Source of the DNA: an uncultured Candidatus Saccharibacteria bacterium
GTDB taxonomy: Bacteria > Patescibacteriota > Minisyncoccia > Phycocordibacterales > UBA5272
DNA: 64,000 bases
Direction of reading: 5' to 3'
Assembly: GCA_964464695.1 (NCBI GenBank)
Contig: CAYXKW010000005.1
Coordinates: 8,677-72,676, forward strand
Shown here: positions 1 to 19,678 of the stretch, piece by piece
Numbering within the stretch: position 1 is the first letter of the stretch
Layout of the letters: every line of letters starts with the position of its first letter
The notes under the pieces: generated by a model
Databases searched by the model: none
Seen by the model: the letters and a program-made list of their open reading frames with translations, nothing else
What the model was told of the DNA's origin: nothing
Position numbers and translations under genes: made by a program

Positions 1-1008
1 CCCTTGTGATAACCTTGGCACTTTGGTTTCTACTAAGTCACTCGCAGAAATAATTGTTGTTTTTTCAATATTAATATACTCCGTTGCAACAAGCGCTGTC
101 ATTAATTTAGTAATTGCACCAATTGAAATCACTTTTGATTTATCTTGCTCTAGGAAAACATAGTTATTGTGCATATCTGCGAACAGAAAAGAATTTGTTT
201 CAAGTACCGGCTTTTTTTCTGTATACGAAAATGTGTCCAAAATAAAATCTTTTTCATACACAAGAATTGGCGTACCAATCGTCACTTCATCAAATATCTT
301 TTTTGCATCTTCGTCAGTCAGACGAACACAACCACCAGAAAAAGTAGATGAAACAGGTGACCCATCATCATACTTTGGCCATCCGTGGATAAAAAAGTTC
401 CCTTGGAACTGCATACTCCACGGCTGTGACACATGCCCCATACTTGAATAGTGTGATTTTTCTTTTGTTTGTATTTTATATAATCCTGCAGGAGTTTCCC
501 ACCACGAACCTTCCTTTCCTTTTGTCTTTACTGGCACTTCAACCGTTACAACACCTTCTTTGTATACTCGCGCAATCATTTGTGATAAATCTACCTCAAC
601 AAATGTTGCTTTTTCATTAATGAACTGTGTTCGTACTTTATTAAAAAAATCAGGATTAGAAAGTGCTGGTTGAACTCCATAACTAAACACAACTTTATCT
701 GGGGAAGTTGCCGCCTCTGTCATAAGAACATAATTATTTACATTTGTTCCAAAATATACAAATAAAACAGCAGAAAAGCCGATAGCCACAAGTAGTGTAC
801 TGATGAATGTGAGTGCGCTTACTTCCCCGTAGAATAGCTTACGAAACGAAAAATGCTTCTGCTCTTCCGGATGTTCCACAAAATAAAAAGCCTGATCAAT
901 ATCTTCCTTACTCCACCCATCTGCTAGAAGTTCTTTTCTAATCGTCGCTTCCTCCATCCATTCAGACTTCCTGAGTGTGACATGTTTTACTAACTGCTTG
1001 TGATACAT
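1..1008 (-). CDS. L,D-transpeptidase (YkuD) domain protein fused to a D,D-carboxypeptidase/PBP-like C-terminal region; the 3' end runs off the window
   Basis: My translation of the minus strand from ATG at 1008 gives MYHKQLVKHV..., with a YkuD catalytic core (HGWPKYDDGSPVSSTFSGGCVRL, Cys nucleophile). Downstream is a serine-peptidase SxxK-like motif (SIGAITKLMTAL). The frame is open to position 1. It is absent from the ORF track because no stop lies in the window. Confidence 0.6.
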   Translation of the reverse strand, partial: MYHKQLVKHVTLRKSEWMEEATIRKELLADGWSKEDIDQAFYFVEHPEEQKHFSFRKLFYGEVSALTFISTLLVAIGFSAVLFVYFGTNVNNYVLMTEAATSPDKVVFSYGVQPALSNPDFFNKVRTQFINEKATFVEVDLSQMIARVYKEGVVTVEVPVKTKGKEGSWWETPAGLYKIQTKEKSHYSSMGHVSQPWSMQFQGNFFIHGWPKYDDGSPVSSTFSGGCVRLTDEDAKKIFDEVTIGTPILVYEKDFILDTFSYTEKKPVLETNSFLFADMHNNYVFLEQDKSKVISIGAITKLMTALVATEYINIEKTTIISASDLVETKVPRLSQG

Positions 1009-1015
1009 AGTGACA

Positions 1016-1198
1016 TTACCATGAATACCCTTTTCTATTGATGATTATTATCGTTAATCCGAGCGCAATAAATATCCCTCCCCCAACTACACCACCCATG
1101 CCGATTGGACCCTGTAATGATGCAAGGATCCCAAGACCGTTAGCAAAACATCCCATAATAATAAATACAAACCCGATAAATTTAAGAAAGGATTTCAT
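1016..1198 (-). CDS. small hypothetical membrane protein, using the internal start MKSFLKFIGF
   Basis: 60-aa ORF with a hydrophobic, Gly-rich segment (GILASLQGPIGMGGVVGGGIFIALGLTIIII). No homology recognised. Confidence 0.25.
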   Translation of the reverse strand: MKSFLKFIGFVFIIMGCFANGLGILASLQGPIGMGGVVGGGIFIALGLTIIIINRKGYSW

Positions 1199-1294
1199 GA
1201 GGTAAGTATAGCAGGAGAATGAAGGAGATTTGGTTAGATGCTCACAATTGAGCAATACGTAAAAGCATCATCTTACGATGGTGCTATTAATTTC

Positions 1295-1388
1295 TGTGAA
1301 CGTTCAGCAGATAGAACTTAGTGGATTCATTGCCACGCAAAGTTTATTTGTTAGTTTTTAGTGTATCATTTTGACCCTTATCGTGAGA
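1295..1388. repeat. ~94-bp direct repeat, copy 1; its partner is at 2431-2524
   Basis: tgtgaacgttcagcagatagaacttagtggattc...ttagtttttagtgtatcattttgacccttatcgtgaga aligns with copy 2 at ~88% identity. This was seen directly in the sequence. Confidence 0.85.
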
Positions 1389-1449
1389 TCTTTAATAATT
1401 CATTTTTTAAAATATTCCCCATTTTGTCAATTACTCTAGTGACGATATG

Positions 1450-2223
1450 TTAATATGTAGTGATTAGTATTCTAGAAAACACTGTTTCTTTTAAAGTATC
1501 TCTTAAATCTTCTTCCTGTTCTTTTGGGGATATAAAATAAAGGATTTGTTCAGGTTGTATTTGCAAAAAACCAGAAGGGTTAATATCTTTGAACAAAAGA
1601 GAGGTCTTAATATTCTCCTCTTTCTCATAATTCTCTGAAAAAGGGGCTCTGTATTTTGATCTTATTCTATATTCTCTTTCATATTTGTGGTCAGATGTCT
1701 CAACCCATTTCAACAATTCAATTAAATGTGAATAAAGAGGGTTGGTGAAGGAATCTGGTAACTGAGGGCAACTTAAAAGTAGATCTTCATACATTTTTAT
1801 AGTATAAGCACCTTCAACATCTATCCACTTACCGCCTAAAAACATTTGAGGCTTTGGTTTAGGAATACTTTCAACTAAAAGACCTCTAAGTAGCTCGAAG
1901 ACTTTTCCATTTTTTTCGATATACACAACAGGCTTCATTCCATTATCCAAACACCAGCTATAATTTATCGCAATACCAAATGGACCAAACTGTCCAAGAG
2001 GAATATACTTTTTGAAATCTTGGTTGACGGGAATAGCGGTAAAACAGACCATCCCAAGATTAATATCAGGAACGTCTTTATTAATATCCCCAAAAAGTAA
2101 CTCCCAGGTTTTTGTCTGGTTGTACATAAACACAAAACCATTTTCCAGTATCGAGAGTAAGCTTCCGACGCTCCTAGTACAGTGAACGATGACAGATTCT
2201 TGATTTAAAATCTCGCCAGACAT
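1450..2223 (-). CDS. AbiGi-like abortive-infection protein (putative)
   Basis: 257-aa ORF. The N-terminal signature VIVHCTRSVGSLLSILENGF resembles the conserved hFT(K/R)S..L..IL..GF opening of the AbiGi family, recalled from memory. The gene stands alone and is flanked by the direct repeats. Confidence 0.35.
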   Translation of the reverse strand: MSGEILNQESVIVHCTRSVGSLLSILENGFVFMYNQTKTWELLFGDINKDVPDINLGMVCFTAIPVNQDFKKYIPLGQFGPFGIAINYSWCLDNGMKPVVYIEKNGKVFELLRGLLVESIPKPKPQMFLGGKWIDVEGAYTIKMYEDLLLSCPQLPDSFTNPLYSHLIELLKWVETSDHKYEREYRIRSKYRAPFSENYEKEENIKTSLLFKDINPSGFLQIQPEQILYFISPKEQEEDLRDTLKETVFSRILITTY

Positions 2224-2275
2224 TATAATGGTTAGTTTAAATAGAAATTAAAATAAAAGCAATTAAATTTGCCAC

Positions 2276-2350
2276 CCACAGAGAGTCGGTCACGAAACTT
2301 CTCCTCGTAAACTCGTCGATAAAGTTTCGCGACCCCGTATTCGACTCTCC
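2276..2350 (-). repeat. structured dispersed repeat element, GAGTCGAATACGGG...GTGACCGACTC family, in inverted orientation
   Basis: The reverse complement GGAGAGTCGAATACGGGGTCGCGAAAC...GTGACCGACTCTC matches 18921-18985 (GAGGAGTCGAATACGGGTCGGAAATC...GTGACCGACTCC). The ends GGAGTCG/CGACTCC are inverted repeats. Confidence 0.7.
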
Positions 2351-2390
2351 CACAAACCACGCAGGTGGTTTGCTCTCTATTGATCACAGT

Positions 2391-2429
2391 CAACAAAAAT
2401 ACACAGGAAGAACCTGTGTATTTTTGTTG
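2391..2429. repeat. perfect 17-bp-stem hairpin (caacaaaaatacacagg / cctgtgtatttttgttg) with a 5-nt loop
   Basis: Seen directly. It lies between the repeat element and direct-repeat copy 2. Confidence 0.8.
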
Positions 2430-2430
2430 A

Positions 2431-2524
2431 TGTGAGCGTTCAGCAGATAGAACTTACTGGGTTCGTTACCCCACAAAGCTTATTTGTTAGTTTTTAGTAT
2501 ACCATTTTAACCCTTCTCGTGAGC
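2431..2524. repeat. ~94-bp direct repeat, copy 2
   Basis: tgtgagcgttcagcagatagaacttactgggttcgttacc...ttagtttttagtataccattttaacccttctcgtgagc. Confidence 0.85.
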
Positions 2525-2921
2525 CTATTAAAAAGTGACAAAAGTGACACTTTTTACACAATTTAATTACAGCCAGATGTCACTATTTTTTACATATAGT
2601 TATATATTCTTCTATACATCAACAAGTGTAGATATATTAATTTGGTAGATACTTGAAATAGGATCAAAAACCAGTTCTCGATTAGAAAAAACAGCGGAAA
2701 AATGAGAAGAATTTTCTAATCATTTCTATTTAAACCTTATATATCAACGAATTTGTTTTATTTTGACTCAATATTTTGACACCAAAAACTTGTGATATAA
2801 TAAGAGGTAACAGCAGAGGTGCACGAAGCAGTGCAATGAGTAACTTTTTAGATAAAGGCTCACGTAATCTTGAAAAAGATACGTGGGCCTTTGTTTGTTT
2901 TAAATCCCTAACAAACAACAT

Positions 2922-4202
2922 ATGACTAAAAATATACAAGTCGTTTATCTATCAGTTGCCAGCCTTAACCCATCAGAGTACAATCCTCGCAAACATACAA
3001 CGGAACAAGCAAATCAGCTTAAAGAGAGTATTAAGCGATTCGGATTCATAGATCCAATAATCTGTAACAGTGCCAAAGGTCGAGAGAATACCGTTATCGG
3101 AGGGCACTTCCGCCTTGAGATGGCGAAGGAACTCAACATCACAGAAGTTCCTGTTGTGTTCGTAAACATTTCAGATCTTGAAAAGGAACAGGAGTTGAAT
3201 GTTCGCTTGAACAAAAACACTGGAGAATTTGATTTTGAAAAACTCCAACAATTAAACTTCGATATGCTGCTCGATATCGGTTTCGATCAAAAGGAGCTCG
3301 ACGACATATGGAATAACAAACTTAACAACAATGAGTTCAATGTCGAAGAAGAACTCAAGAAGATTAAGGAACCAAAGACACGAAAAGGCGACATTATTGT
3401 AATGGACGGATGCAGATTGATCTGTGGCGATTCACTTCTCCCTGAAACACTTCAAAAGCTTTTTGGTGACGAACGTGCTTCCTTAATAATCTCGGATCCA
3501 ATCTACAACATTTCTGTGAATTATGACAGTGGAATTGGGGGCAAACAAAGTTATGGAGGTACAGTCGATGATAACAAGACAGACAAGGAGTATGAAAACT
3601 TCTTGAGAAAGAGCATGGTCGCAGCACTCGCAGTAACAAAAGCTGATGCTAATATATTTTACTGGAGCGATCAGGCATATATCTGGCTTATTCAAACTCT
3701 CTACCGTGAACTTGGTATAACTAATCGTCGTGTGTGCATATGGTTGAAGAACTCACAAAATTGCGTACCTAAGGTAGCTTTCAACAAATGCTATGAACCG
3801 TGCACGTACGGTACTCGTGGTAAGCCGTATATTACAAAAGGTGTAAATGATCTCAATGAGATTATGAATGATGACATGACAACTGGTAATGATTTGTTAC
3901 AACAAGCACAAGATCATCTAACGGTATGGATGGAAAAGAGACTCTCTGGAAATGAGTACGAGCACAGCACTATGAAGCCAGATGAGGTCTATCAAAAAGC
4001 CATTCGTCGTTGTACAAAAATGAACGATATCATTCTTGATAGCTTCTCTGGTTCAGGAAGTACGATTATTGCAGGTATTAAGCTCAAACGCAGAGTGTAC
4101 GCTGTTGAAATTGAAGAAGTATTTTGTGACTTAACGATACGACGCTATGAAGCGTTAACAGGCAAAAAAGCAAAGGTTATCCGAAATGGCGAAAAAGGAT
4201 AA
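2922..4202 (+). CDS. ParB-like nuclease domain fused to a DNA methyltransferase, of the phage-type ParB/methylase kind
   Basis: N-terminal ParB/Srx-like region (IGGHFRLEMAKELNITEVPVVFV). C-terminal methyltransferase motif IV (SDPIYNI, a DPPY variant) lies upstream of motif I (ILDSFSGSGST), the beta-class order for N6A/N4C methyltransferases. Confidence 0.7.
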   Translation: MTKNIQVVYLSVASLNPSEYNPRKHTTEQANQLKESIKRFGFIDPIICNSAKGRENTVIGGHFRLEMAKELNITEVPVVFVNISDLEKEQELNVRLNKNTGEFDFEKLQQLNFDMLLDIGFDQKELDDIWNNKLNNNEFNVEEELKKIKEPKTRKGDIIVMDGCRLICGDSLLPETLQKLFGDERASLIISDPIYNISVNYDSGIGGKQSYGGTVDDNKTDKEYENFLRKSMVAALAVTKADANIFYWSDQAYIWLIQTLYRELGITNRRVCIWLKNSQNCVPKVAFNKCYEPCTYGTRGKPYITKGVNDLNEIMNDDMTTGNDLLQQAQDHLTVWMEKRLSGNEYEHSTMKPDEVYQKAIRRCTKMNDIILDSFSGSGSTIIAGIKLKRRVYAVEIEEVFCDLTIRRYEALTGKKAKVIRNGEKG

Positions 4203-4599
4203 AAAGGTTAAAGACTTTCTTGAACACCTTAACACCGTTCCCAATATTTCTCTCGCCTGTGAAAAAGTTGGCTTAGCGAGGAATACAATCTATCGTTGGT
4301 GTAAGGAAGATAAAGAGTTTCAGGAAAGTGTTGATAATGCACTTTTATGTGGCGTAGATTCTATTACAGATCTTGCAGAGAGTAAGCTCATAACTCATAT
4401 CAATAATGGAAACTTACGTTCTATTCAGTATTGGTTAGATAATCACAAAAAAGAGTATATACGACCACGAGTTATCGTAGATTCAAAAGATTCACTTGAA
4501 CCAATTTCGTACATTGAGATTCTTCCAGTAGATCCTAATAATCTTCCACCACCTCTACCGTTAAATGAATTTGATCTTCCTTTAGATTATATTGGTTAA
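4186..4599 (+). CDS. phage terminase small subunit-like HTH protein
   Basis: NTIYRWCKEDKEFQESVDNAL...LRSIQYWLDNHKKEYIRPR matches the conserved TerS N-terminal pattern (TVxRWL..EFR...AR..ADAL ... RLxVDTRKWxLSK). It overlaps the upstream gene by 17 nt. Confidence 0.55.
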   Translation: MAKKDKKVKDFLEHLNTVPNISLACEKVGLARNTIYRWCKEDKEFQESVDNALLCGVDSITDLAESKLITHINNGNLRSIQYWLDNHKKEYIRPRVIVDSKDSLEPISYIEILPVDPNNLPPPLPLNEFDLPLDYIG

Positions 4600-4733
4600 T
4601 AGTAACGGTAACAAAAACTATGACATAATGTCGTAGTTTTTGATATTTTGTAATATTTTTTTACTCTCACAATGTCGTCTTTTTTAGTTCTGCATAGACT
4701 ATGCAGGGATTATGGTTCTGTCATTAATATAAT

Positions 4734-6056
4734 ATGGAGACAAGAACAATTGGAAAGATACATAGCTCTGTAACCTTATCAGAAGTAAGAGTTAAGTACT
4801 GTCTATATGCTAGAAAATCAACTGAGTCAGATGAAATGCAAGCTTTGTCGATAGATTCACAGATTAAAGAAATGGAAGCTATAGCAGAGCGTTTAGGACT
4901 TTATGTTGTAGAAGTTAAAAGAGAATCTCATTCAGCAAAAGCTTCGGGTCAACGACCAGTGTATAAAAAGCTATTATCAGAAATTGATCAAGGAAAGTTT
5001 AACGGTGTATTAACGTGGGCGCCAGATCGGTTAAGTAGAAATGCAGGCGACCTGGGATCACTTGTTGATTTAATGGATCAGCGAAAATTAATCCATATAC
5101 AAACATATGGTCAAACTTTTTCTAACTCTCCTAATGAAAAGTTCTTGCTCATGATTCTTTGTTCTCAAGCAAAACTAGAAAATGATAATAAAAGTATTAA
5201 TGTTAAAAGAGGATTGAGAGCAAGAGTTGAAATGGGGTTATGGCCATGTCGTCCACCAACAGGATATACGAAGTTTAAAAGAATGGATCAAAAGTGCGAG
5301 TCTGTTATAGATGAAGTAAGGGCACCAATAATTAAACAAATGTTTGAAAAGGTTGGGTACGATGGTTGGTCTGGTAGAAAGGTGTGGGGTTGGCTTAAAG
5401 ATGATAAAGATTTTAAGACAGAGAATAATATACATCTAAGCTTAGGTAACTTTTATCGACTACTGCAAAATCACTTCTATTATGGAAGATTTGAATTCCC
5501 TAAAAACTCAGGAAATTGGTATAACGGATCACACATTCCAATTATCACAAAAGAACTCTTTGATTTAGTTCAAGAGAAAATTAAGAGTCAAATATTAGAA
5601 CCTAAAACCGAACAAAAGGAATTCGCTTTTACAAAGATCATGACATGCGGTCTGTGTGGTTCTGGTATTACAGCAGACGAGAAATTTAAACACCAACAAA
5701 ATGGTAATGTTCATAGATATGTGTACTACAAATGCACAAGAACGAGAGATCAGAATTGTCCCTGTGGTTTCCTTAATGAAGAGGATTTAATAGAACAACT
5801 AAAAGACCTCATTGATGATCTTAATATTCAGATAGTCCCCATGAAAGAGAAAATCACTAATGAGGTCAGAAGATTCAAGAAGTTTCAACATATGCTACTA
5901 GGAAACAAAACACCAATATCCGTTAAAGATATTGATATTCGTAACTATGCGAAGTTTATTTTGGTTGAGGGAGAAATGGAGGAAAAGAGAGAATTTTTTA
6001 AATGTCTCAATTCTAAGATACTACTATCGAATAAGAAAATTTTATTAGTAAATTAA
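4734..6056 (+). CDS. large serine recombinase, a phage-type integrase/resolvase
   Basis: N-terminal resolvase domain with catalytic Ser (YARKSTESDE ... LTWAPDRLSRN), a recombinase domain and a Cys-rich zinc ribbon (CGLCGS...YYKCTRTRDQNCPCG). 440 aa. Confidence 0.8.
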   Translation: METRTIGKIHSSVTLSEVRVKYCLYARKSTESDEMQALSIDSQIKEMEAIAERLGLYVVEVKRESHSAKASGQRPVYKKLLSEIDQGKFNGVLTWAPDRLSRNAGDLGSLVDLMDQRKLIHIQTYGQTFSNSPNEKFLLMILCSQAKLENDNKSINVKRGLRARVEMGLWPCRPPTGYTKFKRMDQKCESVIDEVRAPIIKQMFEKVGYDGWSGRKVWGWLKDDKDFKTENNIHLSLGNFYRLLQNHFYYGRFEFPKNSGNWYNGSHIPIITKELFDLVQEKIKSQILEPKTEQKEFAFTKIMTCGLCGSGITADEKFKHQQNGNVHRYVYYKCTRTRDQNCPCGFLNEEDLIEQLKDLIDDLNIQIVPMKEKITNEVRRFKKFQHMLLGNKTPISVKDIDIRNYAKFILVEGEMEEKREFFKCLNSKILLSNKKILLVN

Positions 6057-6094
6057 ACATATTTTCATGGTAAAATACATCATAATTAACCTTA

Positions 6095-6646
6095 ATGGAA
6101 GCTCTAATCTTAACTTATAAATATTGGATTATATTGCCTTTAGCTATTGTAGAAGGTCCAATTATAACCATAATAGCTTCATTTCTCGCTAGTATTGGTT
6201 TATTAAATGTATTTTTCGTTTACCCATTAGTTCTTTTAGGGGATATCATCGGTGACATTATTCATTATTTTGTTGGTAGAGTTGGTGGTAATAGAATAAT
6301 AAAAAAGTACGGTCATTATTTTAAAGTAACAGAAGATAATATTCATGAAGTTAAAGCGAAGTATTTTAATAATAAAAATTCACTTTGGAAAATTATTACT
6401 CTAAGTAAAATTACACATGCCCCATCATCTCTAATTATGTTGGTTTCTGGTATTGTGAAAATTGATTTTAAGCAGTTTTTACTAATTACGACTGTTAATA
6501 ATATTTTTAAAGTACTTGCATTCGTGCTCATCGGTTTCTTCTTCGGTAAGTCATACTTAGTGATTGAAAATTATATTAGTAATTCTTGGGTAATTTTTCT
6601 ACCAATATTTGGAATCATTGTTTACTTTTTATATTCAAAAAAATAA
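6095..6646 (+). CDS. DedA/SNARE-associated (VTT domain) membrane protein
   Basis: Multi-TM protein with the DedA-like motif LAIVEGPIITIIASFLASIG and a GDIIGDIIHYFVGR region. Confidence 0.6.
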   Translation: MEALILTYKYWIILPLAIVEGPIITIIASFLASIGLLNVFFVYPLVLLGDIIGDIIHYFVGRVGGNRIIKKYGHYFKVTEDNIHEVKAKYFNNKNSLWKIITLSKITHAPSSLIMLVSGIVKIDFKQFLLITTVNNIFKVLAFVLIGFFFGKSYLVIENYISNSWVIFLPIFGIIVYFLYSKK

Positions 6647-6649
6647 TGT

Positions 6650-7339
6650 ATGAAAAAGATATCTTGTATAATTCCAACTTATAATGAAGAAGAACAAATA
6701 GAAACAATACTCAGAACTTTAAACCCGTTACTGGGTAATACTTTAGACGAGGTAATAGTAATTGATGACTTTTCTTCTGACAGAACGAAGAAAATAGTTA
6801 AAGGACACAAAAATATCCTTTTGATTGAACATACAAAAAATGAAGGGAAGAGTAAAACCATTGCAGACGGAATTAGGGGAGCAAAGAATGATATCATTCT
6901 AATGATTGATGGTGACCTAATTGGATTAAACGAAACTAATATTTTAAATCTAGTTAATCCTATACTTACTAACTTAGCTGATATATCTATAAGTTATAGA
7001 GGTAATACACCTAAGTGGTGGATTCATTTTTTTAAGATCGAAACTTTTAGTGGAGAGAGATGTTTCTATAAAGAATTACTTTTGGACAATTTAAAGGAAA
7101 TAGAATATTTACCAGGATATGGATTAGAGGTTTACATCAATGAAAAGTTAGTTAGGAATAAACTTAGGATAAAGTCTGTCCCGATGAATAATGTAACAAT
7201 AAAATTTAAATGGCACAAACATGGCGTGATTATTGGTGTTTGGAAAGAACTATTAATGTGGAAAAATATTTTTGCCACAGTAAACCCTATAAAATTAATT
7301 ATACAAGTCGCAAAAATGAAGAAACTTTTGATTGATTAA
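6650..7339 (+). CDS. family 2 glycosyltransferase, polyprenyl-phosphate sugar transferase-like
   Basis: ISCIIPTYNEEEQI ... VIVIDDFSSDRT ... DGDL. GT-A fold with a DxD motif. Confidence 0.7.
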   Translation: MKKISCIIPTYNEEEQIETILRTLNPLLGNTLDEVIVIDDFSSDRTKKIVKGHKNILLIEHTKNEGKSKTIADGIRGAKNDIILMIDGDLIGLNETNILNLVNPILTNLADISISYRGNTPKWWIHFFKIETFSGERCFYKELLLDNLKEIEYLPGYGLEVYINEKLVRNKLRIKSVPMNNVTIKFKWHKHGVIIGVWKELLMWKNIFATVNPIKLIIQVAKMKKLLID

Positions 7340-8430
7340 AGTTTATACTTTCGTAGTATTGGTTTGTAGATATATAAAGAGATTTTTGACAATACAGACC
7401 ATAGCAATCTTCTTGCTAGATTTAAGTGTTGTGTATTAATAAACATATATTCAATTTCTGGCACAGCTCCTCTATTTAACTTAAAACTCGGTGCCCCAGA
7501 ACTTATATTGAGAAATAAACCATTATCATATGCGTATTTAATAATATAGATTAAACATCTTCTGTATAAAGCATTCTCGCTTGGTCGGTTAATTTCGTAT
7601 CCAACAATTGGAGCTGTAACAGTAACAGTGTCACCTATTAATCCAACTACAGCAACAAATTTACCCTGTTCTATATCTAGTAGTAACCTTAGATGCAGTA
7701 GATTTTCTTTACAAAGTTTTTGCATATAAAGTGCCGTATATTGAATATTTTCTTCAGTGTATTTCTCTAGGTAGAGTTTATTATAAAGAACTTCTGCAAT
7801 TTTAAAATGCTCAATATTATCAACATCAGGGCTGGTGAATATGTACTTTTCTGATTTTAATAGTTCAAGATCCCTGATAGCATCTCTTTTCTTTAAATTA
7901 AAACTTGGAAATATATAGACTTGTCTTGTAACAATTTGTATCCACCCATTTCTGAGTAAATTAGTAAGAATTTCATTATTTTGAGTTCCATTTATAGACC
8001 TAATTGCCAGTGTGTGGTCAGGATGTCTCTTTACTGCTTTTTTAGTTAAAGATTTAATATCTATGTCTTTCCAATACTCACTAAAAAAGTTAGTTGATAA
8101 CATATAGTTATTTAATGTTTGTATCTTATCTACTTTAAAAAATGAAAGGAAAGACGAGAATAAATTTATTACCACTCTCATAAGAAAAATGAGTACAAAA
8201 TTTTTTATCTTGTGAAGTTCTACTTTAGAGTAGTTTATGATCATCCCATTAGGGGAAACAACATAGCAGTTGTTTTCAAATACCTCGTCTGTAACTGTTG
8301 AGAGTATTAGTTTATTATCAAGTTCATAATATTCAATTTTAGTTTTTATATTATTAAAAAGATGTTCAATTTTATTTGAACAAAGTATTGAATGTAATTT
8401 GTATGAAAAGTCTTTTTCTAAGTTATCCAT
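7336..8430 (-). CDS. FemAB/CelD-like GNAT-fold acyl(aminoacyl)transferase (putative)
   Basis: The C-terminal half shows a GNAT-like pattern (VAVVGLIGDTVTVTAPIVGY...ALYRRCLIYIIKYAYDNGLFLNISSG). It overlaps the upstream ATP-grasp gene by 8 nt. Identification is weak. Confidence 0.3.
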   Translation of the reverse strand: MDNLEKDFSYKLHSILCSNKIEHLFNNIKTKIEYYELDNKLILSTVTDEVFENNCYVVSPNGMIINYSKVELHKIKNFVLIFLMRVVINLFSSFLSFFKVDKIQTLNNYMLSTNFFSEYWKDIDIKSLTKKAVKRHPDHTLAIRSINGTQNNEILTNLLRNGWIQIVTRQVYIFPSFNLKKRDAIRDLELLKSEKYIFTSPDVDNIEHFKIAEVLYNKLYLEKYTEENIQYTALYMQKLCKENLLHLRLLLDIEQGKFVAVVGLIGDTVTVTAPIVGYEINRPSENALYRRCLIYIIKYAYDNGLFLNISSGAPSFKLNRGAVPEIEYMFINTQHLNLARRLLWSVLSKISLYIYKPILRKYKL

Positions 8431-9514
8431 TGTATTCTATATCATGAGTGGTTGCCGCGGCAAAAGAAGTTTTATAACGTATTGTTATATACATCATTTC
8501 TAAAAAAGATAAAATCTGTGCCTTAACAGGAAGCTCACCGACAACATCCCTTGCTTTTTTATAGTCATGAATCAACTCAGGCAATCTTCCTTCATGGAGA
8601 TATTTAAACCAAAACATTAGATATATACTTTTACTTATTCTACAACTTTCAAACGGTTTTGTATCGTCTGATGAAAAAGTATTATTCTTAAAGTAAATTG
8701 AATCTGACAATAAATGCAATCCACTAGTTGCTCTTGGATTACACTCAAGTACATAGAGGTCTTTTCCATCATCAATAAAATCAAAAGCAATCTGACCATT
8801 ATATTTTGTATCCTTAGCAAACTGCTCTATAAAATTATTACATTTTTCATTTTTTGTTAATTCAAAATATGTTGACGCGGCATTATTTACTAAATATTTT
8901 GGCTTATAAACAATCTGACTAATAACCTTTCCTTTGTGAATTATGGCGTAATTACATAAATAAGATCCTTTTATAAACTGTTGTTGCACCCAAGGATACT
9001 TTTCTGATATATCTAATCCTAGTATGCTTTTTTTGGTGACATCCCTTATAACATTTGTTCCAAATCTAGAAAAAACAGGTTTGAGGAGTGTATCTTTATC
9101 TTCAGTTCTGATTTGATTAATACTTTCTATTAACCTCATCTCGGGTACTTTAACAAAATTATTCATAAATTGCTTAAATGTAAATTTATTATGAAGTCCA
9201 AGCAATAGACCATTCTCAGGAATAAAAACCTTTTCCTTTAGTGCTGTATCTTGAACGACTGAGCTTAAGTAAAAAACGTCTTCACAGGTAGGTATAACAA
9301 AATCACTGTTCTCTATAATCCTAATGATCTCTCTTTTATAGTTTTTGAAATCTAGTTTTGGTGAAGGTATTTTTATAAATTTTACATTTTTATAATATTT
9401 AGCCATCGGAAAGTACAAAGAGTCAACTACAGTAACGTCGTGACCAGATCTTTGCATAATTTTAACCCATTCTATGGTTACAGGGGCTCTTGGACAAGTA
9501 ATAGTAACTTTCAT
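8423..9514 (-). CDS. ATP-grasp domain enzyme, probably a carboxylate-amine ligase
   Basis: DLYVLECNPRATSGLHLL is typical of the ATP-grasp C-terminal catalytic region. 363 aa. Confidence 0.6.
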   Translation of the reverse strand: MKVTITCPRAPVTIEWVKIMQRSGHDVTVVDSLYFPMAKYYKNVKFIKIPSPKLDFKNYKREIIRIIENSDFVIPTCEDVFYLSSVVQDTALKEKVFIPENGLLLGLHNKFTFKQFMNNFVKVPEMRLIESINQIRTEDKDTLLKPVFSRFGTNVIRDVTKKSILGLDISEKYPWVQQQFIKGSYLCNYAIIHKGKVISQIVYKPKYLVNNAASTYFELTKNEKCNNFIEQFAKDTKYNGQIAFDFIDDGKDLYVLECNPRATSGLHLLSDSIYFKNNTFSSDDTKPFESCRISKSIYLMFWFKYLHEGRLPELIHDYKKARDVVGELPVKAQILSFLEMMYITIRYKTSFAAATTHDIEYNG

Positions 9515-9516
9515 AT

Positions 9517-10023
9517 TTATGAGACTAGTTTTTTAACAAGAGAACTACTATTTAAAATAATATTGTGAGTACCAACTAAGTTTTTATGAATGTGTGAATT
9601 ATTATATTTTGTAAAAATAAAAGGAACAGTAGTATCAAATAAAAATCCATATGATTTTTGTTCTCTTACCTGTATATGTGTTTTGTATGGTAATTTATTG
9701 ATTATTTTTCTAAACCACACAAATTTCACTTGGTGGGGCGAAGCTATTGTTATAATGCTATCTATTTTTTTGTATAGTTCTTCTTTTAAAGAGTAAGAAA
9801 TAACTCCACCAAAAGAGTGTCCTACCAAAATAAACTTACCATCCTCTTTTTCTAAGAAAGAGTTAATCTCACCAATTAATGCAAGATGTTTACCTGTTTG
9901 GTGTAATGTATAAAACATCGGAAAATAAAAAACCTCCATACCTATGGATTCAAAAGCTTTTAAAATAAGATAATTTCTAAATCTAAAATTATGTATACCT
10001 TGTATAAAAATTACTTTTTTCAT
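9517..10023 (-). CDS. alpha/beta hydrolase, thioesterase or lipase-like
   Basis: GxSxG nucleophile elbow (LVGHSFGGVIS). 168 aa. Confidence 0.5.
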   Translation of the reverse strand: MKKVIFIQGIHNFRFRNYLILKAFESIGMEVFYFPMFYTLHQTGKHLALIGEINSFLEKEDGKFILVGHSFGGVISYSLKEELYKKIDSIITIASPHQVKFVWFRKIINKLPYKTHIQVREQKSYGFLFDTTVPFIFTKYNNSHIHKNLVGTHNIILNSSSLVKKLVS

Positions 10024-10031
10024 GAGAGGTA

Positions 10032-10946
10032 TTAAAAATCAACAAAAGACTTTGTTGGATTGTATTTTAACATATTTTTAGCTTTGTTTATAGAAAGATA
10101 ATGGTTAGAAGTCATCTGGTGGACTATGTATTTACTTATAAAAGGCGCTTTTTTAATACTTAATAACTTAAAAAGAATCTCTAATATAGAACCAATTAAA
10201 AAAGCTACTTTTGTTGATATATATAGATTTTTTGCTTGTATATTAAACTTCTTTTTAACATGTGCCATTAGGCTATTTATTTTTACTGATTCTTGGTCTG
10301 CGATGTTAAAAATTTCTTTCTGAAATTCTTCTTTTGTTTCAATGCTGTTTTTAATTGCCAGACAAAGATTATCTATATGCGTTATTGAAATAGTATTATC
10401 ACCACTTCCTAAAATAATAAATCTATTAAATCTATGAGACCTTAATAATCTTGGTATAATTTTTTTATCCATAGCACCATAAATGACATGCGGTCTTAGT
10501 ATTATTTTTTGTGATTTACTATCATGATTTAAAACAACCAGTTCTGCTTCATATTTTGATTGACTATACCCATTTAAAAAATTACCACACATAGATGCCT
10601 CATCAATTGTGTGATTGATGTCCTCAGGGTCATAGACACTACATGAACTTATGTATATAAACTTTTGCAAGTTAGAAAAACTATCTAATGTGTTTTTCGT
10701 ACCAACACAATTATTCTCATAGCATTCCTTATAAGTTGCCCAATCATCAACGGTTCCAGCACAGTGAACTAAAACATCAATTTGAACTGGGTGACTTATT
10801 TGCCCATTAGATATGTCCCAATAAGTAAAGTTCTTGTCATTTTTTCTTCGCGAGAAACCAACAACATCATAGTTGTGTTTTTGTAAGTAAGTATAGAGAG
10901 AACCCCCTACAAATCCATTTACTCCAGTGATTCCTATTTTTAACAT
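10032..10946 (-). CDS. NAD(P)-dependent SDR, epimerase/dehydratase/reductase family
   Basis: N-terminal Rossmann motif GITGVNGFVGGSL. Its start is translationally coupled to the upstream AMP-ligase stop, so it could act as a reductase (R) domain partner. Confidence 0.6.
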   Translation of the reverse strand: MLKIGITGVNGFVGGSLYTYLQKHNYDVVGFSRRKNDKNFTYWDISNGQISHPVQIDVLVHCAGTVDDWATYKECYENNCVGTKNTLDSFSNLQKFIYISSCSVYDPEDINHTIDEASMCGNFLNGYSQSKYEAELVVLNHDSKSQKIILRPHVIYGAMDKKIIPRLLRSHRFNRFIILGSGDNTISITHIDNLCLAIKNSIETKEEFQKEIFNIADQESVKINSLMAHVKKKFNIQAKNLYISTKVAFLIGSILEILFKLLSIKKAPFISKYIVHQMTSNHYLSINKAKNMLKYNPTKSFVDF

Positions 10947-12469
10947 AAACTGTTACTAGTGATATAGTATTTTATTTTGTTCTTATCTATTTTTTGTGTT
11001 CTACCACTAAGAGGAAGTTCCATTATGATGATTTTATCAGGAAGAGCTGTTTTATCTATACTGTGCTCTCCTTTGCTTAATTCATTAAATATTCTTTTCT
11101 CAAAAGTCTTATTATCCTCTTGTAAGGTCATATCTTTTTCAATAGCTAAATAAATTTTCTCATCTTCTAATTCATCATTATAAATTCCCACCATTGCACA
11201 GTTTTTAATACCCCTTATATTACTTATCGTAGATTCAAAAATTGAGGGGTATATATTATAATTTTTTCTTATAATCATGTCTTTTTTTCTCCCTAATAGT
11301 ACTAGCCCATTTTTATCAAGAGTCCCTAGATCTCCAGTGTAATGTTCTGTTACCTTATCTAGTCCGAGGTATCTATTAAAAAGATTTTTTCCAGAAACAC
11401 AAATTTCATTGTCTATTATTCTTATTGTGACACCATTTGCAACTGTTCCTAGTAAGTCACCATTTGTATTTAAATTTATCTTATCTTGTAACTCCACATA
11501 CGAGATGGGTAATATTTCCGTTGCCCCGTAAACACAGATAACTTTTGTACTTTTAGATATTATTGTATTTAGTTTAGATAAAAATCCTTTTAAAACAGGA
11601 GCTGAGCCTAGGACGATTGTTTCAAGTGTATTTGGAAGTTTTACATTGTTTCGAGAACAAAACTCCATTGTTTGATTATACTCGGCAGGGATTCCAAAAG
11701 TTTTGTTTACTTTAAATTTAAGTACATCTTTATAAAACTTATCTGTTTTAAAATTAAGGTTACTTGGCAATACTACTCGTGACCCTGACAGGATAGACGC
11801 TAATAAAAAATGAAGTTGTGAGGAGTAGAAAATGTCAGTATGTTGTATATTAAGAATTTCTTCAATTTTTTTAAGTATTTCAAATAAGGATTCGTAGGTA
11901 TGAACCACGCCCTTCGGAATACCCGTTGTGCCAGATGTAAAAATAATTACAGAGTCTTTTTGATCATCTGTGCGTATTTCAGTAAAATTAGACTTATTAT
12001 TTTCAACTTTTTTAACGAGTATTTTATTAAGTTTTCTGAGTGTACTTATATCAGGAATATTTATATGGAACATCTTTATGAGAGTTTCAATATAAGGGGT
12101 GTTAATTATAGTGTTGAGAATCGGATCTACTAATACGTGTTCTGGTTTTGCAAAGTTAACTCTCCCAATAAAATTATCTTTCCCCATTGATGGGTCAGCT
12201 AAGACTAAAACACCACCAGCTCTAATAATTGCAAATATATACACAATACTTTCAATACTTGGTTTTGCTAGGAATAAGACTTTGTCCTCTTTTTTAAAAC
12301 CATTCTTAACTAAACGAATTGCTACTGAATCAATCTGAAGTAAAAAATCTTTAAAACTAATTTTTTTACCATTAGTAGTTTCTATAATTGATGTATCTTT
12401 TAGAAACTCTTTTTGTGAAAATAGTTTCTCTAAAATAAGATTAGAATACAAATTAATCTGTGATTTCAT
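10940..12469 (-). CDS. AMP-dependent synthetase/ligase, an adenylation enzyme
   Basis: AMP-binding core motif IFTSGTTGIPKGVVHT. 509 aa. It overlaps the upstream ACP gene. Confidence 0.75.
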   Translation of the reverse strand: MKSQINLYSNLILEKLFSQKEFLKDTSIIETTNGKKISFKDFLLQIDSVAIRLVKNGFKKEDKVLFLAKPSIESIVYIFAIIRAGGVLVLADPSMGKDNFIGRVNFAKPEHVLVDPILNTIINTPYIETLIKMFHINIPDISTLRKLNKILVKKVENNKSNFTEIRTDDQKDSVIIFTSGTTGIPKGVVHTYESLFEILKKIEEILNIQHTDIFYSSQLHFLLASILSGSRVVLPSNLNFKTDKFYKDVLKFKVNKTFGIPAEYNQTMEFCSRNNVKLPNTLETIVLGSAPVLKGFLSKLNTIISKSTKVICVYGATEILPISYVELQDKINLNTNGDLLGTVANGVTIRIIDNEICVSGKNLFNRYLGLDKVTEHYTGDLGTLDKNGLVLLGRKKDMIIRKNYNIYPSIFESTISNIRGIKNCAMVGIYNDELEDEKIYLAIEKDMTLQEDNKTFEKRIFNELSKGEHSIDKTALPDKIIIMELPLSGRTQKIDKNKIKYYITSNSLC

Positions 12470-12695
12470 TGTTAATTACCTTTAGTACATCACCTAGGGT
12501 TTTATATTTTCTAAATAGTTCTTTATTTTTAGGCTCAATGGTATATTTATTTTTAACTACAGCCAAAAGCTCCCCAAGATCTATCGAATCTTTAATATAG
12601 ATAGAAAGATCAGAAGATTCATTTAAGTCTTCTTGTATCTCAAATATGTAATTTAGTATCTCCACTAAGTTATCTTGTGTCATTTTGCTATGCAT
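12453..12695 (-). CDS. acyl carrier protein (phosphopantetheine-binding)
   Basis: 80-aa acidic protein with a DSIDLGEL serine attachment motif. Confidence 0.6.
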   Translation of the reverse strand: MHSKMTQDNLVEILNYIFEIQEDLNESSDLSIYIKDSIDLGELLAVVKNKYTIEPKNKELFRKYKTLGDVLKVINNEITD

Positions 12696-13479
12696 TTTTT
12701 CCTTTATAAAAAGATGACTGCTCCTCTTTGTATTTATGGTGTAGTGTACCCATTACTTTATCCCAGAAAGAAAAATACAACCCGTAATTTAAATAACCAT
12801 ATTTATGATGCATATTATGGTGGATAGAACTTGTAAAAACTGCACCAAGTTTTTTATTCATAGTAGGGGTTAGGAATTCATACCCCAAATGACCAATTGT
12901 GTTTCCTATAGAATTAATAATAAATACTGCTACAACCGTATAAATATGAACTGGAATAATAAGACACATTAATATAAAATAAAATCCAAAAATAACATTC
13001 CCCAGAGGACTAAAAGAGAAATTTGTGAATGGTGTTGGGTTTTTATTTGTATGGTGAACCGCATGAGTATATTTGAAGACTGTCTCATGTGAATGCATGA
13101 ATCGGTGCACCCAGTAAAAATATGTATCCTGAAGTCCTGCAAATAATAGTATTGTAAATACAAAGTATAGATTACTGTGTTCAGAAATATCAAAATATAC
13201 TTTTGTATATCCATGATTTACTAAAGATATTAAAATATAGGCTATTATAATATAACAAAGCATGCTTACTGTAGACCATTTAATATCGAAAATAATACTA
13301 TCTTTGCTTGGTTCTTCGCTCTGAATTTTGTAGTCTCTTAAAGTGTTCTTTTTTAATTTATATACATAAAGATAAGCTATTGATCCTAGAATATAGTTAC
13401 AAGATAAAAAAACACCCACAAATAAATAAAAGTAGTTTATATGATCTATTTGCAATAAATTGTTTAGATTTGAAAGCAT
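12688..13479 (-). CDS. fatty acid hydroxylase / sterol desaturase family membrane di-iron enzyme
   Basis: Histidine boxes HRFMHSH, HAVHH and HHNMHH in a multi-TM protein. Confidence 0.65.
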   Translation of the reverse strand: MLSNLNNLLQIDHINYFYLFVGVFLSCNYILGSIAYLYVYKLKKNTLRDYKIQSEEPSKDSIIFDIKWSTVSMLCYIIIAYILISLVNHGYTKVYFDISEHSNLYFVFTILLFAGLQDTYFYWVHRFMHSHETVFKYTHAVHHTNKNPTPFTNFSFSPLGNVIFGFYFILMCLIIPVHIYTVVAVFIINSIGNTIGHLGYEFLTPTMNKKLGAVFTSSIHHNMHHKYGYLNYGLYFSFWDKVMGTLHHKYKEEQSSFYKGKNA

Positions 13480-13575
13480 AATTATGACTTAATAATAGCA
13501 CAATTTACCTAAAATTTTAAAAAATAACAGCACCAAAGATAAAGGTACTGTCATATGTTTTTCAACATGTAAAAT

Positions 13576-14250
13576 CTATTGTTTCCAAACACTTTTAAGG
13601 AAAGACCCGTATTTGAGGAAATGCAAAGTCTGTTCATGAACCTGCCCTGAAAAAACAAGTCCTGTGTGACTTGTAAAAACTTTTGTATGGGGGATATTCT
13701 CCCCAACCTGAGTTTCACTAACTAGGACAACACCGTCATTTTCAAGTAACTTTTTATAACCCTCAAGACCTTTAGCGTTGGGGAGTAAATCAAGCAACTT
13801 AAACGTCGACGCTACCCTAAACAGATTAAAAGTATCATCCGTTCCTGCGATAACGCCAATGCGAACAGGCGTGTCTAGTGGCATTGTCACTCCGTCAGTT
13901 GCGATCAATCTTATTGCCTTAGGTAACATCCATGAAGTTTTGCCTTGAGAGATGGTTCTCCCTAGGATAGACCCATTGAGTGGTGATCCTAAGCAGACAA
14001 CCTTTTCAAGACTTGGGAACTGTTTCAAGTGGTATGCCGTGATTGTGCCCCCTAAACTATGACCAACAATAACCTGAGGGCGAAAATCATTAACTTCTTT
14101 GATAAATCTAGTTGTGATGTCATCTGTTTCTGGAATGAGTGGGTAGCTAAAGACTTTTACATCATATCCAGCATCCTTTAACTTTTTTACGAAAGGTGAC
14201 ATCAAAAACGCATTCATGAACATACCGTGAACTAAAAGAACTTTGTCCAT
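13576..14250 (-). CDS. alpha/beta hydrolase; start chosen at the internal MDKVLLVHGM
   Basis: GHSLGG nucleophile elbow. HG oxyanion motif near the N-terminus. Confidence 0.5.
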   Translation of the reverse strand: MDKVLLVHGMFMNAFLMSPFVKKLKDAGYDVKVFSYPLIPETDDITTRFIKEVNDFRPQVIVGHSLGGTITAYHLKQFPSLEKVVCLGSPLNGSILGRTISQGKTSWMLPKAIRLIATDGVTMPLDTPVRIGVIAGTDDTFNLFRVASTFKLLDLLPNAKGLEGYKKLLENDGVVLVSETQVGENIPHTKVFTSHTGLVFSGQVHEQTLHFLKYGSFLKSVWKQ

Positions 14251-14306
14251 TGCTAATCTCCTGTAATTAGAACTACAAATAAGACTACAGGAACACAACG
14301 ACTGAG

Positions 14307-14837
14307 TCAATTTGTCTTTAAAGAAATAGAAAATATATAACCATTATCTTCAAAGAGATTACTTATCCAGGTACTGTTTTCCTTTTTCAGAGTTATATAG
14401 CCCTTAACGTAAGTTACTATTTTATATTGATTTGGATTAGAAATTGTTTCGTCAGATTTCTGAACAGACTCTTTCAAAGACCACATAACAGTTTCTTGGG
14501 TTGTTGTCTTTTTATAGAATTTCGTTAAAATAGACAATTCATTTTCATCGCAACAATAACTAAGTAGTTCTCTTTTTCTTGGACGTAAGTATTCAACATC
14601 AATGCCTATATTAAAATCTTTACACAAAGCCACAAAAACTATTTCCTGTGAATCAGAAACCGAACAAAATAAATCTTCATGGTTGGATATGTAGGGTTTA
14701 TTGTTTTTCTTTTTTATCACCACATCAAGACCAAAAGCATTTTTAGCTAAAGTTTTAAGTAGCAGATATTTATCTGTGATACTTTTGTTTCCTATCTTAT
14801 AAAATACAACTTTTTTGTTTAAAACTATTTTTTGCAT
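14307..14837 (-). CDS. 4'-phosphopantetheinyl transferase (Sfp/AcpS superfamily)
   Basis: YISNHEDLFCSVS ... FNIGIDVEYLRPR resembles the PPTase motifs (SISHS / GIDIE). Confidence 0.5.
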   Translation of the reverse strand: MQKIVLNKKVVFYKIGNKSITDKYLLLKTLAKNAFGLDVVIKKKNNKPYISNHEDLFCSVSDSQEIVFVALCKDFNIGIDVEYLRPRKRELLSYCCDENELSILTKFYKKTTTQETVMWSLKESVQKSDETISNPNQYKIVTYVKGYITLKKENSTWISNLFEDNGYIFSISLKTN

Positions 14838-14876
14838 TATTTACTGTATAAGTTTAGTATACTAGATACCATACTC

Positions 14877-17352: not shown

Positions 17353-17439
17353 TTGGGAGTTATTATAACTACATTATAACATCTTTGTATATCGTAGTTT
17401 TATTAAATACATACTATAATGGTACTATTAAAATAAACT

Positions 17440-18261: not shown

Positions 18262-18331
18262 GCTTTGGTTCTTATAATTTAAGACTAACCGAAAAGCATT
18301 ATAAACGACGCTTCTCGTGCTAGCTGTTGAA

Positions 18332-18405: not shown

Positions 18406-18439
18406 AATATTATTATTCTATATGTACACTCTATCATTC

Positions 18440-18896: not shown

Positions 18897-18920
18897 AGAA
18901 AATGAACTGCTTCATTTTCG

Positions 18921-19669: not shown

Positions 19670-19678
19670 CTACACACA

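Follow-up and report, generated by a model that had tools for sequence, protein, structure and literature searches.

Evidence for a composite genomic island assembled through site-specific insertion at a tRNA-Glu gene in a Saccharibacterium

Introduction

What kind of unit is formed by a short cluster of phage-type and defence-type genes in a 64-kb stretch of Saccharibacterial (TM7) DNA (contig CAYXKW010000005.1; the window below means this whole stretch), and what are the two direct repeats that lie within the cluster? A first-pass annotation had called four genes here, namely an AbiGi-like gene, a fusion of a ParB nuclease domain with a DNA methyltransferase, a small-terminase-like (TerS) gene and a large serine recombinase, and had described positions 1295-6056 as a phage-derived islet in which ~94-bp repeats bracket the AbiGi gene. 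The analysis reported here points instead, with a probability that we put at roughly three in four, to a larger unit, in which window positions 1296-18405 would constitute a composite genomic island, put together by site-specific insertion where a tRNA-Glu(UUC) gene has its 3' end.

The host of the window is a Saccharibacterium, and the core of the repeat likewise pulls out metagenome-assembled genomes of Saccharibacteria. Bacteria of the candidate phyla radiation (CPR, or Patescibacteria) have tiny genomes in which few mobile elements are recognised and integration sites are almost unknown, and they are hard to manipulate. A recent survey of the group reports many genomic islands and names no integrases or sites (PMC12455944). 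Our search of the literature on serine recombinases together with tRNA-Glu and Saccharibacteria, and on islands of Patescibacteria, turned up no account of the present system. The large serine recombinase of the window is called LSR#1 hereafter.

Results

The limits of the unit are set by two relatives, L043 and L045 (L-numbers denote loci or contigs fetched for comparison, P-numbers fetched proteins), which were retrieved through the hemerythrin gene beyond the tRNAs (window 19244-19669). Window positions 2436-18332 are absent from both, and the flanks are 95-99.7% identical. On the hemerythrin side, L043 1510-7022 matches window 18333-23844 at 98.4% and L045 266-3820 matches window 18333-21887 at 99.7%, both alignments beginning where the tRNA-Glu gene has its 3' end; in the opposite direction both relatives pass straight from the tRNA into a palindrome and hairpin region (L043 1345-1513 = window 2265-2435; L045 123-269 = window 2288-2435). 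The 15.9 kb missing from the two relatives is therefore an insertion, which takes in one of the two repeats (element B), three genes of the islet and 12 kb of low-GC cargo, and the islet of ParB-methyltransferase, TerS and LSR#1 is the conserved backbone end of this 15.9-kb island at tRNA-Glu. The insertion point falls between the last bases of tRNA-Glu and its palindrome, which abuts the tRNA gene in the island-free relatives and is thus a native terminator-like hairpin. Both states occur together in sample 3300043411, where the island-free L045 and an island-bearing contig (L015, 100% identical) differ in their flank alleles. The comparison across genomes that the first-pass annotation had proposed accordingly did not return conserved synteny, and a refutation of mobile origin on that ground fails because close relatives lack the segment; its reading of a mobile, integrative and phage-related origin is borne out, whereas its limits of 1295-6056 give way to an island at 2436-18332 that reaches tRNA-Glu.

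Insertion at a tRNA gene and presence/absence polymorphism among close relatives are the marks of a tRNA-linked island, and the junctions resolve the event to the base. The empty site of L043 and L045 reads ...TTATTGA-T-GTGA-C-CCCACGG..., the distal junction of the window ...TTGTTGA-T-GTGA-G-CGTTCAGC..., and the junction at the tRNA ...GTTGAA-G-GTGA-C-CCCACGG..., so that GTGA is the sole sequence common to all three. A shared core of 4 bp is what would be expected after the action of a serine recombinase and not of a tyrosine integrase. When the two island ends are joined they form a 38-bp phage-type attachment site (attP), GTGCTAGCTGTTGAA-GGTGAGCG-TTCAGCAGATAGAAC, whose 15-bp inverted repeats match at 12/15 positions around an 8-bp spacer containing GTGA; this symmetry was reached by 0.17% of 20,000 random junctions, and the bacterial site (attB) and the two hybrid sites (attL and attR) score 7-8. 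The reconstructed attP junction contains GTGCTAGCTGTTGAAGGTGAGCGTTCAGCAGATAGAAC and the attB junction, with the flank alleles of the window, CCTGTGTATTTTTGTTGATGTGACCCCACGGAGAGTCGAAC; the ends of the island in L035 reconstitute the same attP. What is found here, a dyad-symmetric attP whose identity with attB is limited to GTGA, agrees with the sites of large serine recombinases, which are ~40-50 bp long, imperfectly dyad-symmetric and minimally identical between attP and attB around a central dinucleotide.

The repeats themselves were recovered at 1295-1398 and 2431-2534, where 104 nt align at 84% identity and ~92-94 nt form a well-conserved core. These are the only two copies in the window, and for a 19-mer of the core the chance expectation is 0.01 occurrences. 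Scans of genomes and metagenomes with the invariant blocks, followed by a profile search, assembled a family of ~20 copies at no fewer than 13 distinct Saccharibacteria/CPR loci, each copy ~92 nt long with sharp ends; the profile built from this family supplied the coordinates of elements A and B in Table 1. The genes beside the element are different at every locus, and the notion of a bracket specific to the Abi gene has to be given up: the repeats belong to a widespread family of attachment arms. In all six loci that hold both (window, L005, L008, L016, L026, L035) the element and tRNA-Glu are co-oriented. The element lies beyond the methyltransferase side of LSR#1 in the window, L018, L019, L025, L035 and L037-L039; the number of independent loci with this arrangement is 7. 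A further motif, TTCAACAGCTAGCACGAGAAG, which we term P' and which marks the tRNA-proximal end of the island, follows tRNA-Glu at five loci (window, L035, L032, L005, L008) and also follows several copies of the element. Co-oriented arrays with a single gene between copies occur in L005 (three copies), L018 (two), L023 (two) and L037 (three), the order in L005 being tRNA-Glu, a 220-aa gene, element, methyltransferase, element, dehydrogenase, element. What lies beyond the core of element B also varies by strain, from the AbiGi gene in the window to a 111-aa open reading frame (ORF) in L018 and an island with a second large serine recombinase, LSR#2, in L019 and L020. In the ~92-nt direct repeat we thus have the distal attachment arm of a type of recombinase island whose insertion point is the tRNA-Glu 3' end, and its link to tRNA-Glu is drawn because of the homology of recombinase tails described below, shared motifs and an intermediate form in L037. 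Remnants of attachment (att) sites accompany the island as well, in the form of elements A and B, a hairpin relic with a copy of the tRNA-Glu 3' end, and the array of L026.

Other identities for the repeat were considered and rejected. It is not a structured RNA, since single folds are no better than shuffles (z 0.09 to -1.2) and the consensus of 14 copies reaches -3.5 kcal/mol with essentially no covariation; an Rfam search of the repeats gave no match at E<=5. Neither is it an integron attC site, having no hairpin and no accompanying tyrosine recombinase (the sole recombinase is of the serine type), nor a miniature inverted-repeat transposable element, as terminal inverted repeats are absent. 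An ORF of 21 codons inside the repeat is accounted for by the tail of a recombinase reading frame. Read along the gene strand, the element opens (1372-1387, 2508-2523) with CACGA(G/T)AAGGGT(C/T)A, with CACGAGAAGGGTCA as the family consensus, and resembles a cassette-end motif joined to the core (CACGAGAAG followed by GTCA), as seen at the segment end in L043; the 92-nt arm may contain an older junction within itself. The extension of element B carries two direct copies of GTGACA at 2534-2550, and the sequence ATAGTGACAT at 1007-1016, where a 79-aa ORF meets the transpeptidase gene, is the exact inverse of ATGTCACTAT at 2577-2586 in this extension; the GTGACA-type repeats may be protein-binding sites.

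All four genes of the first-pass annotation are present as ORFs and match their profiles, the TerS-like and AbiGi proteins weakly so in Pfam. In the fusion protein both the ParB_N and the N6_N4_Mtase domain exceed their Pfam cut-offs, and phrog_498 is matched at E=1.8e-92. The TerS-like protein matches small-terminase families of PHROG at E=1e-8 to 4e-3, every Pfam match falling below cut-off, and its orthologues abut, on the upstream side, a large terminase gene (TerL) in L037 and L042. LSR#1 has the three-domain architecture of large serine recombinases, with PF00239 (Resolvase, E=3e-20), PF07508 (Recombinase, E=2e-11) and PF13408 (Zn_ribbon_recom, E=6e-9) all over cut-off and phrog_95 (integrase) at E=1e-61. 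It has >8000 database matches, among them >120 CPR cluster representatives at 77-95% identity (one from Pacebacteria), whereas integrases from 50,697 phage records reach <=26% identity; a look-up of the exact protein returned nothing. The C-termini of its homologues and the genes downstream of them vary by locus. A palindrome in front of the recombinase gene, reported in the first-pass annotation, is present and lies one base to the left of the position given there (Table 1).

In L037-L040 the backbone runs from the element or elements through the methyltransferase, a 137-aa TerS-like protein and a 485-aa protein to LSR#1, and the 485-aa protein is TerL (phrog_38, E=1e-79). The window holds only 134 nt at the place expected for TerL. 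The layout of L018 is like that of the window (element, small ORF, element, methyltransferase, TerS, recombinase), with a recombinase 93% identical and a methyltransferase only 45% identical; L019 has the element, a remnant, a recombinase 96% identical and the same downstream DedA and GT2 genes, and retains the last 47 codons of TerL; and L025 has the element, five metabolic genes and only a scrap of the recombinase. Ordered from the complete L037 through the window, which lacks TerL, and L019 with its 47 codons to the scrap of L025, these loci appear to form a deletion series of one backbone. In L032 and L035, and in the viral-database contigs L041 and L042, accessory genes fill the interval that separates the packaging genes from the recombinase, or lie past the latter, and they comprise restriction-modification genes, helicase-nuclease pairs, a diversity-generating retroelement and others; no virion genes are among the accessory genes of these four loci, and the backbone yielded no genes for a primase, for replication or for a repressor. 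The retroelement, a reverse transcriptase with bAvd at L032 9221-10624 (also in L033 and L034), lies on a CPR contig between the LSR#1 gene and a tRNA-Glu(CUC), next to a type III-like methyltransferase/helicase pair.

A second recombinase family meets the same tRNA. In L019 and L020 a long frame on the strand of the element enters the element and stops inside it, ending in ...LLVSVQQIELSWFVTPQSLFVSF and a stop codon, and this frame is the C-terminal half of LSR#2. Its relatives are CPR recombinases of ~569 aa with tails such as ...LVTPRRVELRLPA and ...LVTLRGIEPRF, whose genes end inside an antisense tRNA-Glu(UUC), as identified with ARAGORN; translated in antisense, the tRNA-Glu of the window itself gives VTPRRVELRLPA up to a stop, the exact tail of P0151 and P0152. 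The tail VSVQQIEL... of L019 is homologous to these tRNA-encoded tails, and in L019 the 92-nt element occupies the place of the 3' part of the tRNA. The LSR#2 island of L026 is bounded by a repeat of the final 19 nt of the tRNA, which recur at a distance of 5.8 kb. Given the genes that end in antisense tRNA-Glu and this 19-nt repeat, tRNA-Glu is a target for serine-recombinase islands in the CPR group. Throughout the LSR#2 family (L026, L028, L029-L031; P0151-P0193) the last ~12 codons come from the antisense tRNA-Glu, so that the C-terminus of the protein depends on the integration site. The LSR#2 island of L029 carries a type I restriction-modification system and a NucS-like gene.

The AbiGi gene lies outside the 15.9-kb insertion, in a segment of its own. 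L043 1-927 matches window 373-1299 (the 79-aa ORF and an L,D-transpeptidase gene), and the homology stops exactly at 1299; window 1300-2264, which holds element A and the AbiGi gene, is replaced in L043 by 417 nt with small ORFs and with P'-like and core sequences of their own. The boundaries of the exchange are TGTGA (1295-1299) on one side and a relic core on the other, and since the swap is at att cores the AbiGi gene sits in a separately variable segment; the earlier suggestion that the Abi segment was acquired separately is thereby upheld.

The AbiGi protein scores E=2.6e-4 and 21.5 bits against Pfam PF10899, which is 0.9 bits below the cut-off of 22.4 bits, and E=2e-9 against the AbiGi model of PADLOC. 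PF10899 is matched by 22 of 28 members of its family, which counts ~176 relatives in a library clustered at 50% and has as invariants H14, Y101 and the E184/R186 pair of an ExE(W/Y)R motif. On these matches the 257-aa protein is a genuine though distant member of the AbiGi family. Its AlphaFold2 model (pLDDT 89.7) has no significant match in the PDB, the weak ones being to DarT and ADP-ribosylating toxins, and a search of PDB sequences with the family profile gave nothing meaningful. AbiGi has been placed among ADP-ribosyltransferase-like families related to DarT (PMC12522546), and lactococcal AbiG is described as a two-protein system of unknown mechanism (PMC13064643). Like the lactococcal system the window has an AbiGi-family protein, ~8-30% identical to characterised members, but no gene for the partner AbiGii is adjacent, the neighbours being the 79-aa ORF, which has no profile matches, and non-coding att relics. 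The protein is probably defence cargo, and probably an effector of the ADP-ribosyltransferase-like kind.

Three features of the locus had not been remarked on in the first-pass annotation: the hairpin region upstream of the AbiGi gene, the palindrome, and the extension to tRNA-Glu. Positions 2262-2400 fold on the minus (gene) strand at -51.9 kcal/mol (z=-5.0). Its homologue is the distal arm of L026's LSR#2 island, with two compensatory stem changes, and in the island-free relatives L043 and L045 the hairpin region adjoins tRNA-Glu. A riboregulator or retron-like RNA of AbiGi was considered and rejected on account of this homology to an unrelated att arm and of its place beside tRNA-Glu in strains without AbiGi. 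The strong hairpin thus seems to be the relic of an older insertion and not a regulator of AbiGi.

The cargo between 6 and 18 kb, absent from L043 and L045, has a guanine-plus-cytosine (GC) content of 0.27-0.32, and its set of acyl-activating, KAS III, hydroxylase, phosphopantetheinyl-transferase, glycosyltransferase and ATP-grasp genes (Table 1) suggests a lipid or surface-modification pathway acquired horizontally by the Saccharibacterium.

Table 1. Features of the composite island and its surroundings, in window coordinates.
Feature	Position	Strand	Remarks
Element A, attachment arm mimicking the 3' part of tRNA-Glu	1296-1387	-	Core TGTGA (1295-1299) is the distal boundary of the AbiGi segment
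AbiGi-family gene	1450-2223	-	257 aa, stand-alone; cargo of the distal segment; predicted ADP-ribosyltransferase-like fold
Putative relic attachment arm of an older tRNA-Glu island	2268-2373	-	Small hairpin 2352-2373; T-arm mimic with long inserted hairpin 2280-2350; degenerate tRNA-Glu 3' end GACTCTCTGTGGGTGGCA
Perfect 18-bp palindrome, left arm of attB	2390-2430		Directly follows tRNA-Glu in island-free relatives
Element B, arm at the distal end of the 15.9-kb island	2432-2523	-	92 nt; crossover core GTGA 2432-2435
Extension of element B with GTGACA motifs (2 direct, 1 inverted)	2524-2592		Invariant in the window, L018, L019 and L020
Predicted extended -10 promoter-like site TGTGATATAAT of the methyltransferase operon	2791-2801	+	Kept in L018; read from sequence only
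ParB_N + N6/N4 DNA methyltransferase fusion (backbone gene 1)	2922-4202	+	426 aa; orthologues in the same position in L018, L035, L037 and L042
Small-terminase-like helix-turn-helix protein (backbone gene 2)	4186-4599	+	137 aa; TerL gene follows its orthologues in relatives, deleted here
Leader of LSR#1 with palindrome ctgcata-gac-tatgcag (4690-4706)	4658-4733	+	93% identical in L032-L034, with other genes upstream there
LSR#1, large serine recombinase, proposed island integrase	4734-6056	+	440 aa
Island cargo	6095-18261		DedA/VTT, GT2, ATP-grasp, epimerase, two AMP-binding, KAS III, fatty-acid hydroxylase, hydrolase, ACPS, Lnb_N
tRNA-proximal island end (P' arm) CTTCTCGTGCTAGCTGTTGAA	18311-18331		Same motif after tRNA-Glu in L035, L032, L005 and L008
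tRNA-Glu(UUC), integration target	18332-18405	-	Crossover core GTGA 18333-18336

Discussion

The observations above are most readily joined by a history in which the intact LSR#1, encoded within the island, would have catalysed its insertion through an exchange between attP and attB whose central dinucleotide lies within GTGA. A conserved backbone would be made up of the ParB-methyltransferase and TerS, joined in relatives by TerL, with the methyltransferase perhaps protecting the incoming DNA and the terminases, as a conjecture, packaging the element for transfer in phage particles. In the window this backbone would have decayed by the loss of TerL, and this copy of the island has probably become fixed, excision being the most that it could still undergo. 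Later insertions at the tRNA would have displaced older att remnants outward, namely the hairpin relic and the AbiGi segment with element A, an order of events that is also described for tycheposons.

Several points weigh against this account. LSR#1 lies 2.2 kb inside the island and not at its end, and its role is assigned by association only; enzymes of the LSR#2 type likewise use tRNA-Glu and the 92-nt element; and the weak nucleotide similarity between element and tRNA-Glu goes unreported by nhmmer. The arrays of L005 and L018, in which internal junctions are attP-like, are unlike what simple attP x attB chemistry predicts. The AbiGi segment has at its tRNA-proximal junction a degenerate core, GCCA, without the P' motif, and its route of arrival is the less clear for it. 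Packaging in phage particles is itself conjectural. Over the hairpin region the island-free L043 and L045 diverge from the window by ~12%, and they are therefore other strains and not simple excisants. Last, no excised circle or attP junction of the island was found in the viral contig collection, where a search for the pattern of the element also returned nothing, and the current mobility of the island is unproven.

The arrays invite another reading, in which the AbiGi gene and its two repeats are a self-contained cassette of an integron-like system run by a serine recombinase, single genes being shuffled in trans downstream of tRNA-Glu. It would account for co-oriented elements that part single unrelated genes in L005, L018, L023 and L037, for gene stops only 1-12 nt from an element, for internal array junctions that equal the reconstructed attP, and for the strain-to-strain change of cargo past the core of element B. 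However, no excised cassette was seen, the arrays could equally be what is left of larger, decayed islands or a product of homologous recombination between arms, the AbiGi segment has no P' motif and only a degenerate proximal core, and known large serine recombinases do not join attP with attL or attR; on balance we regard such a cassette as unlikely. Doubtful too, in our estimation, is a broader proposition that LSR#1 elements are CPR-wide, self-packaging, satellite-like islands whose own TerS and TerL load the excised circle into capsids of a helper phage, and which also capture and reshuffle recombinase-less single-gene cassettes (the AbiGi segment and the arrays of L005, L018 and L037 would be examples) in trans downstream of tRNA-Glu through the 92-nt and P' arms, and which would thereby be a serine counterpart of the integron and the main route of gene exchange in the absence of conjugation.

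It could also be supposed that the methyltransferase, TerS and recombinase are the leftovers of a temperate phage that lost its structural and lysis genes, to which cargo and repeats are incidental. The ParB-methyltransferase, TerS and TerL are indeed of phage type, two relatives of LSR#1 lie on viral-database contigs, and stepwise deletions of the backbone are observed, so that this part of the label "phage-derived" in the first-pass annotation stands. The label is only half shown in this way, for portal, capsid, tail and lysis genes occur in none of ~10 related contexts, two viral-database contigs among them, and the island of the window has, as that annotation had noted, no structural phage genes. 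Furthermore, the 8 kb between TerL and the recombinase in L042 encode a PIF1 helicase, a PD-(D/E)XK nuclease, a ResIII/TnsA-like protein and, in the opposite orientation, a methyltransferase, L041 carries type I restriction-modification genes, and the order methyltransferase-TerS-TerL-recombinase recurs at ~80% identity in many genomes, unlike the product of random deletion. A decayed prophage is therefore quite unlikely.

With respect to the enzyme, the insertions might have been made by another recombinase of the LSR#2 type, absent from the window, in which case LSR#1 would be cargo or an enzyme of inversion or resolution. LSR#2 enzymes sit at tRNA-Glu with a C-terminus encoded by the site, the LSR#2 frame of L019 runs into the 92-nt element, and LSR#1 is not at the island end. 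Against this, LSR#2 islands have a different distal arm (of the hairpin type, with the 19-nt repeat) and a different proximal arm, and the 92-nt arm accompanies LSR#1 in 7 loci, while an intact LSR#2 is present in none of the LSR#1 islands examined; we think the substitution of enzymes rather improbable. Finally, one might take the 92-nt repeats not for recombination sites but for mobile promoters, leaders or small-RNA elements between genes; this is very unlikely, since the features in its favour (an extended -10-like TGATATACT on the gene strand, a usual distance of 25-75 nt to the next gene start with hairpins following, and similar boxes upstream of true tRNA-Glu genes) are outweighed by the loss of the -10-like box in diverged copies whose two end blocks are invariant, by the lack of a conserved RNA fold or Rfam match, by strain breakpoints exactly at the element end in both A and B, by the symmetric attP that the element end forms with the far island end, and by the recombinase reading frame that enters the element, although promoter and recombination-site roles could coexist.

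With site-specific insertion at tRNA-Glu as the preferred reading, the LSR#1 island is a case of tRNA-linked island accretion that resembles the tycheposons, and is thus a known kind in a new form. Of 937 tycheposons, 910 use tyrosine recombinases (Hackl et al., bioRxiv 10.1101/2020.12.28.424599). On published features, both systems enter on the 3' side of a tRNA gene, where they leave partial tRNAs or remnants of att sites, both have later arrivals that displace older elements inward into the island with degenerate integrases and remnants scattered about, and both combine a modular backbone with adaptive or defence cargo in streamlined genomes without conjugative elements. The present system differs in its large serine recombinase, in an identity of attB and attP of only 4 bp, in a tRNA-like mimic arm in place of an exact partial tRNA, in a methyltransferase/TerS/TerL backbone without the typical replication genes of tycheposons, and in its CPR host.

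Other known elements share single aspects. In staphylococci the staphylococcal cassette chromosome (SCC) is inserted by the serine recombinases CcrAB at the 3' end of rlmH/orfX, where it forms tandem arrays and recombinase-less cassettes with short direct repeats between them. As it is commonly described, SCC is the closest serine-recombinase analogue, being alike in its arrays and in its insertion at the 3' end of a conserved gene, but its target gene and recombinase subfamily are different and it has no terminase or ParB-methyltransferase backbone. Phage-inducible chromosomal islands (PICI) and other phage satellites are likewise small integrative elements with an integrase and packaging genes, no full set of virion genes and often defence genes. 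The combination of integrase and packaging gene is found here as LSR#1 with TerS, joined by TerL in relatives; however, no replication, regulation or interference module was found, and relatives have both TerS and TerL whereas the copy in the window has no TerL. LSR#1 shares the three-domain architecture of the phiC31, Bxb1 and A118-type integrases, and its attP is typical of theirs in size, dyad symmetry and very short core, but LSR#1 differs from the phage integrases in targeting the 3' end of a tRNA. Neither the IntI tyrosine recombinase and hairpin attC of an integron nor the virion structural and lysis genes of a prophage are present, the latter being missing from the related contexts as well.

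A widespread and conserved LSR#1 with a defined target in the final bases of tRNA-Glu, and with attB and attP resolved to the base, would provide a concrete mechanism for these genomes, and would open the entry of defence genes and metabolic clusters into CPR genomes to testing. An explanation is also gained for repeats and hairpins that annotation might otherwise have listed as RNAs of unknown kind, and the recombinase is a candidate tool for site-specific integration in Saccharibacteria, where genetics is just beginning.

Some further observations concern the surroundings of the island. Contigs from three independent Logan assemblies, otherwise 100% identical to the window, stop exactly at 2324, 2407, 4731 and 5504. 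We rejected these ends as recombination points, there being no repeated k-mers within the window; the stretches missing from the contigs (the 5' half of the recombinase gene, the palindrome and the hairpin) are common to other genomes, and the ends are thus probably graph tangles. A second indel relative to L043, at 23845-24973, comprises two small P-loop kinase-like genes present in the window only, at 23878-24384 (AAA_33/Zeta-toxin-like) and 24405-24938 (dNK/AAA-like). Right after tRNA-Val(GAC), at 18831-18900, lies a long inverted repeat or hairpin with spurious Rfam matches to microRNA precursors and an inverted match in L043 and L044. Just upstream of tRNA-Glu(UUC), at 18437-18537 on the minus strand, is a second tRNA-Glu-like sequence, GGCCCCATCG[..]TCTATCGGTTAGG[..]TCGGCTTTTCATGCCGG[..], which is split by inserted hairpins and is conserved in L026 at ~11745-11925; neither ARAGORN nor Rfam calls it a tRNA, and it may be a further att relic or the gene of an unusual RNA.

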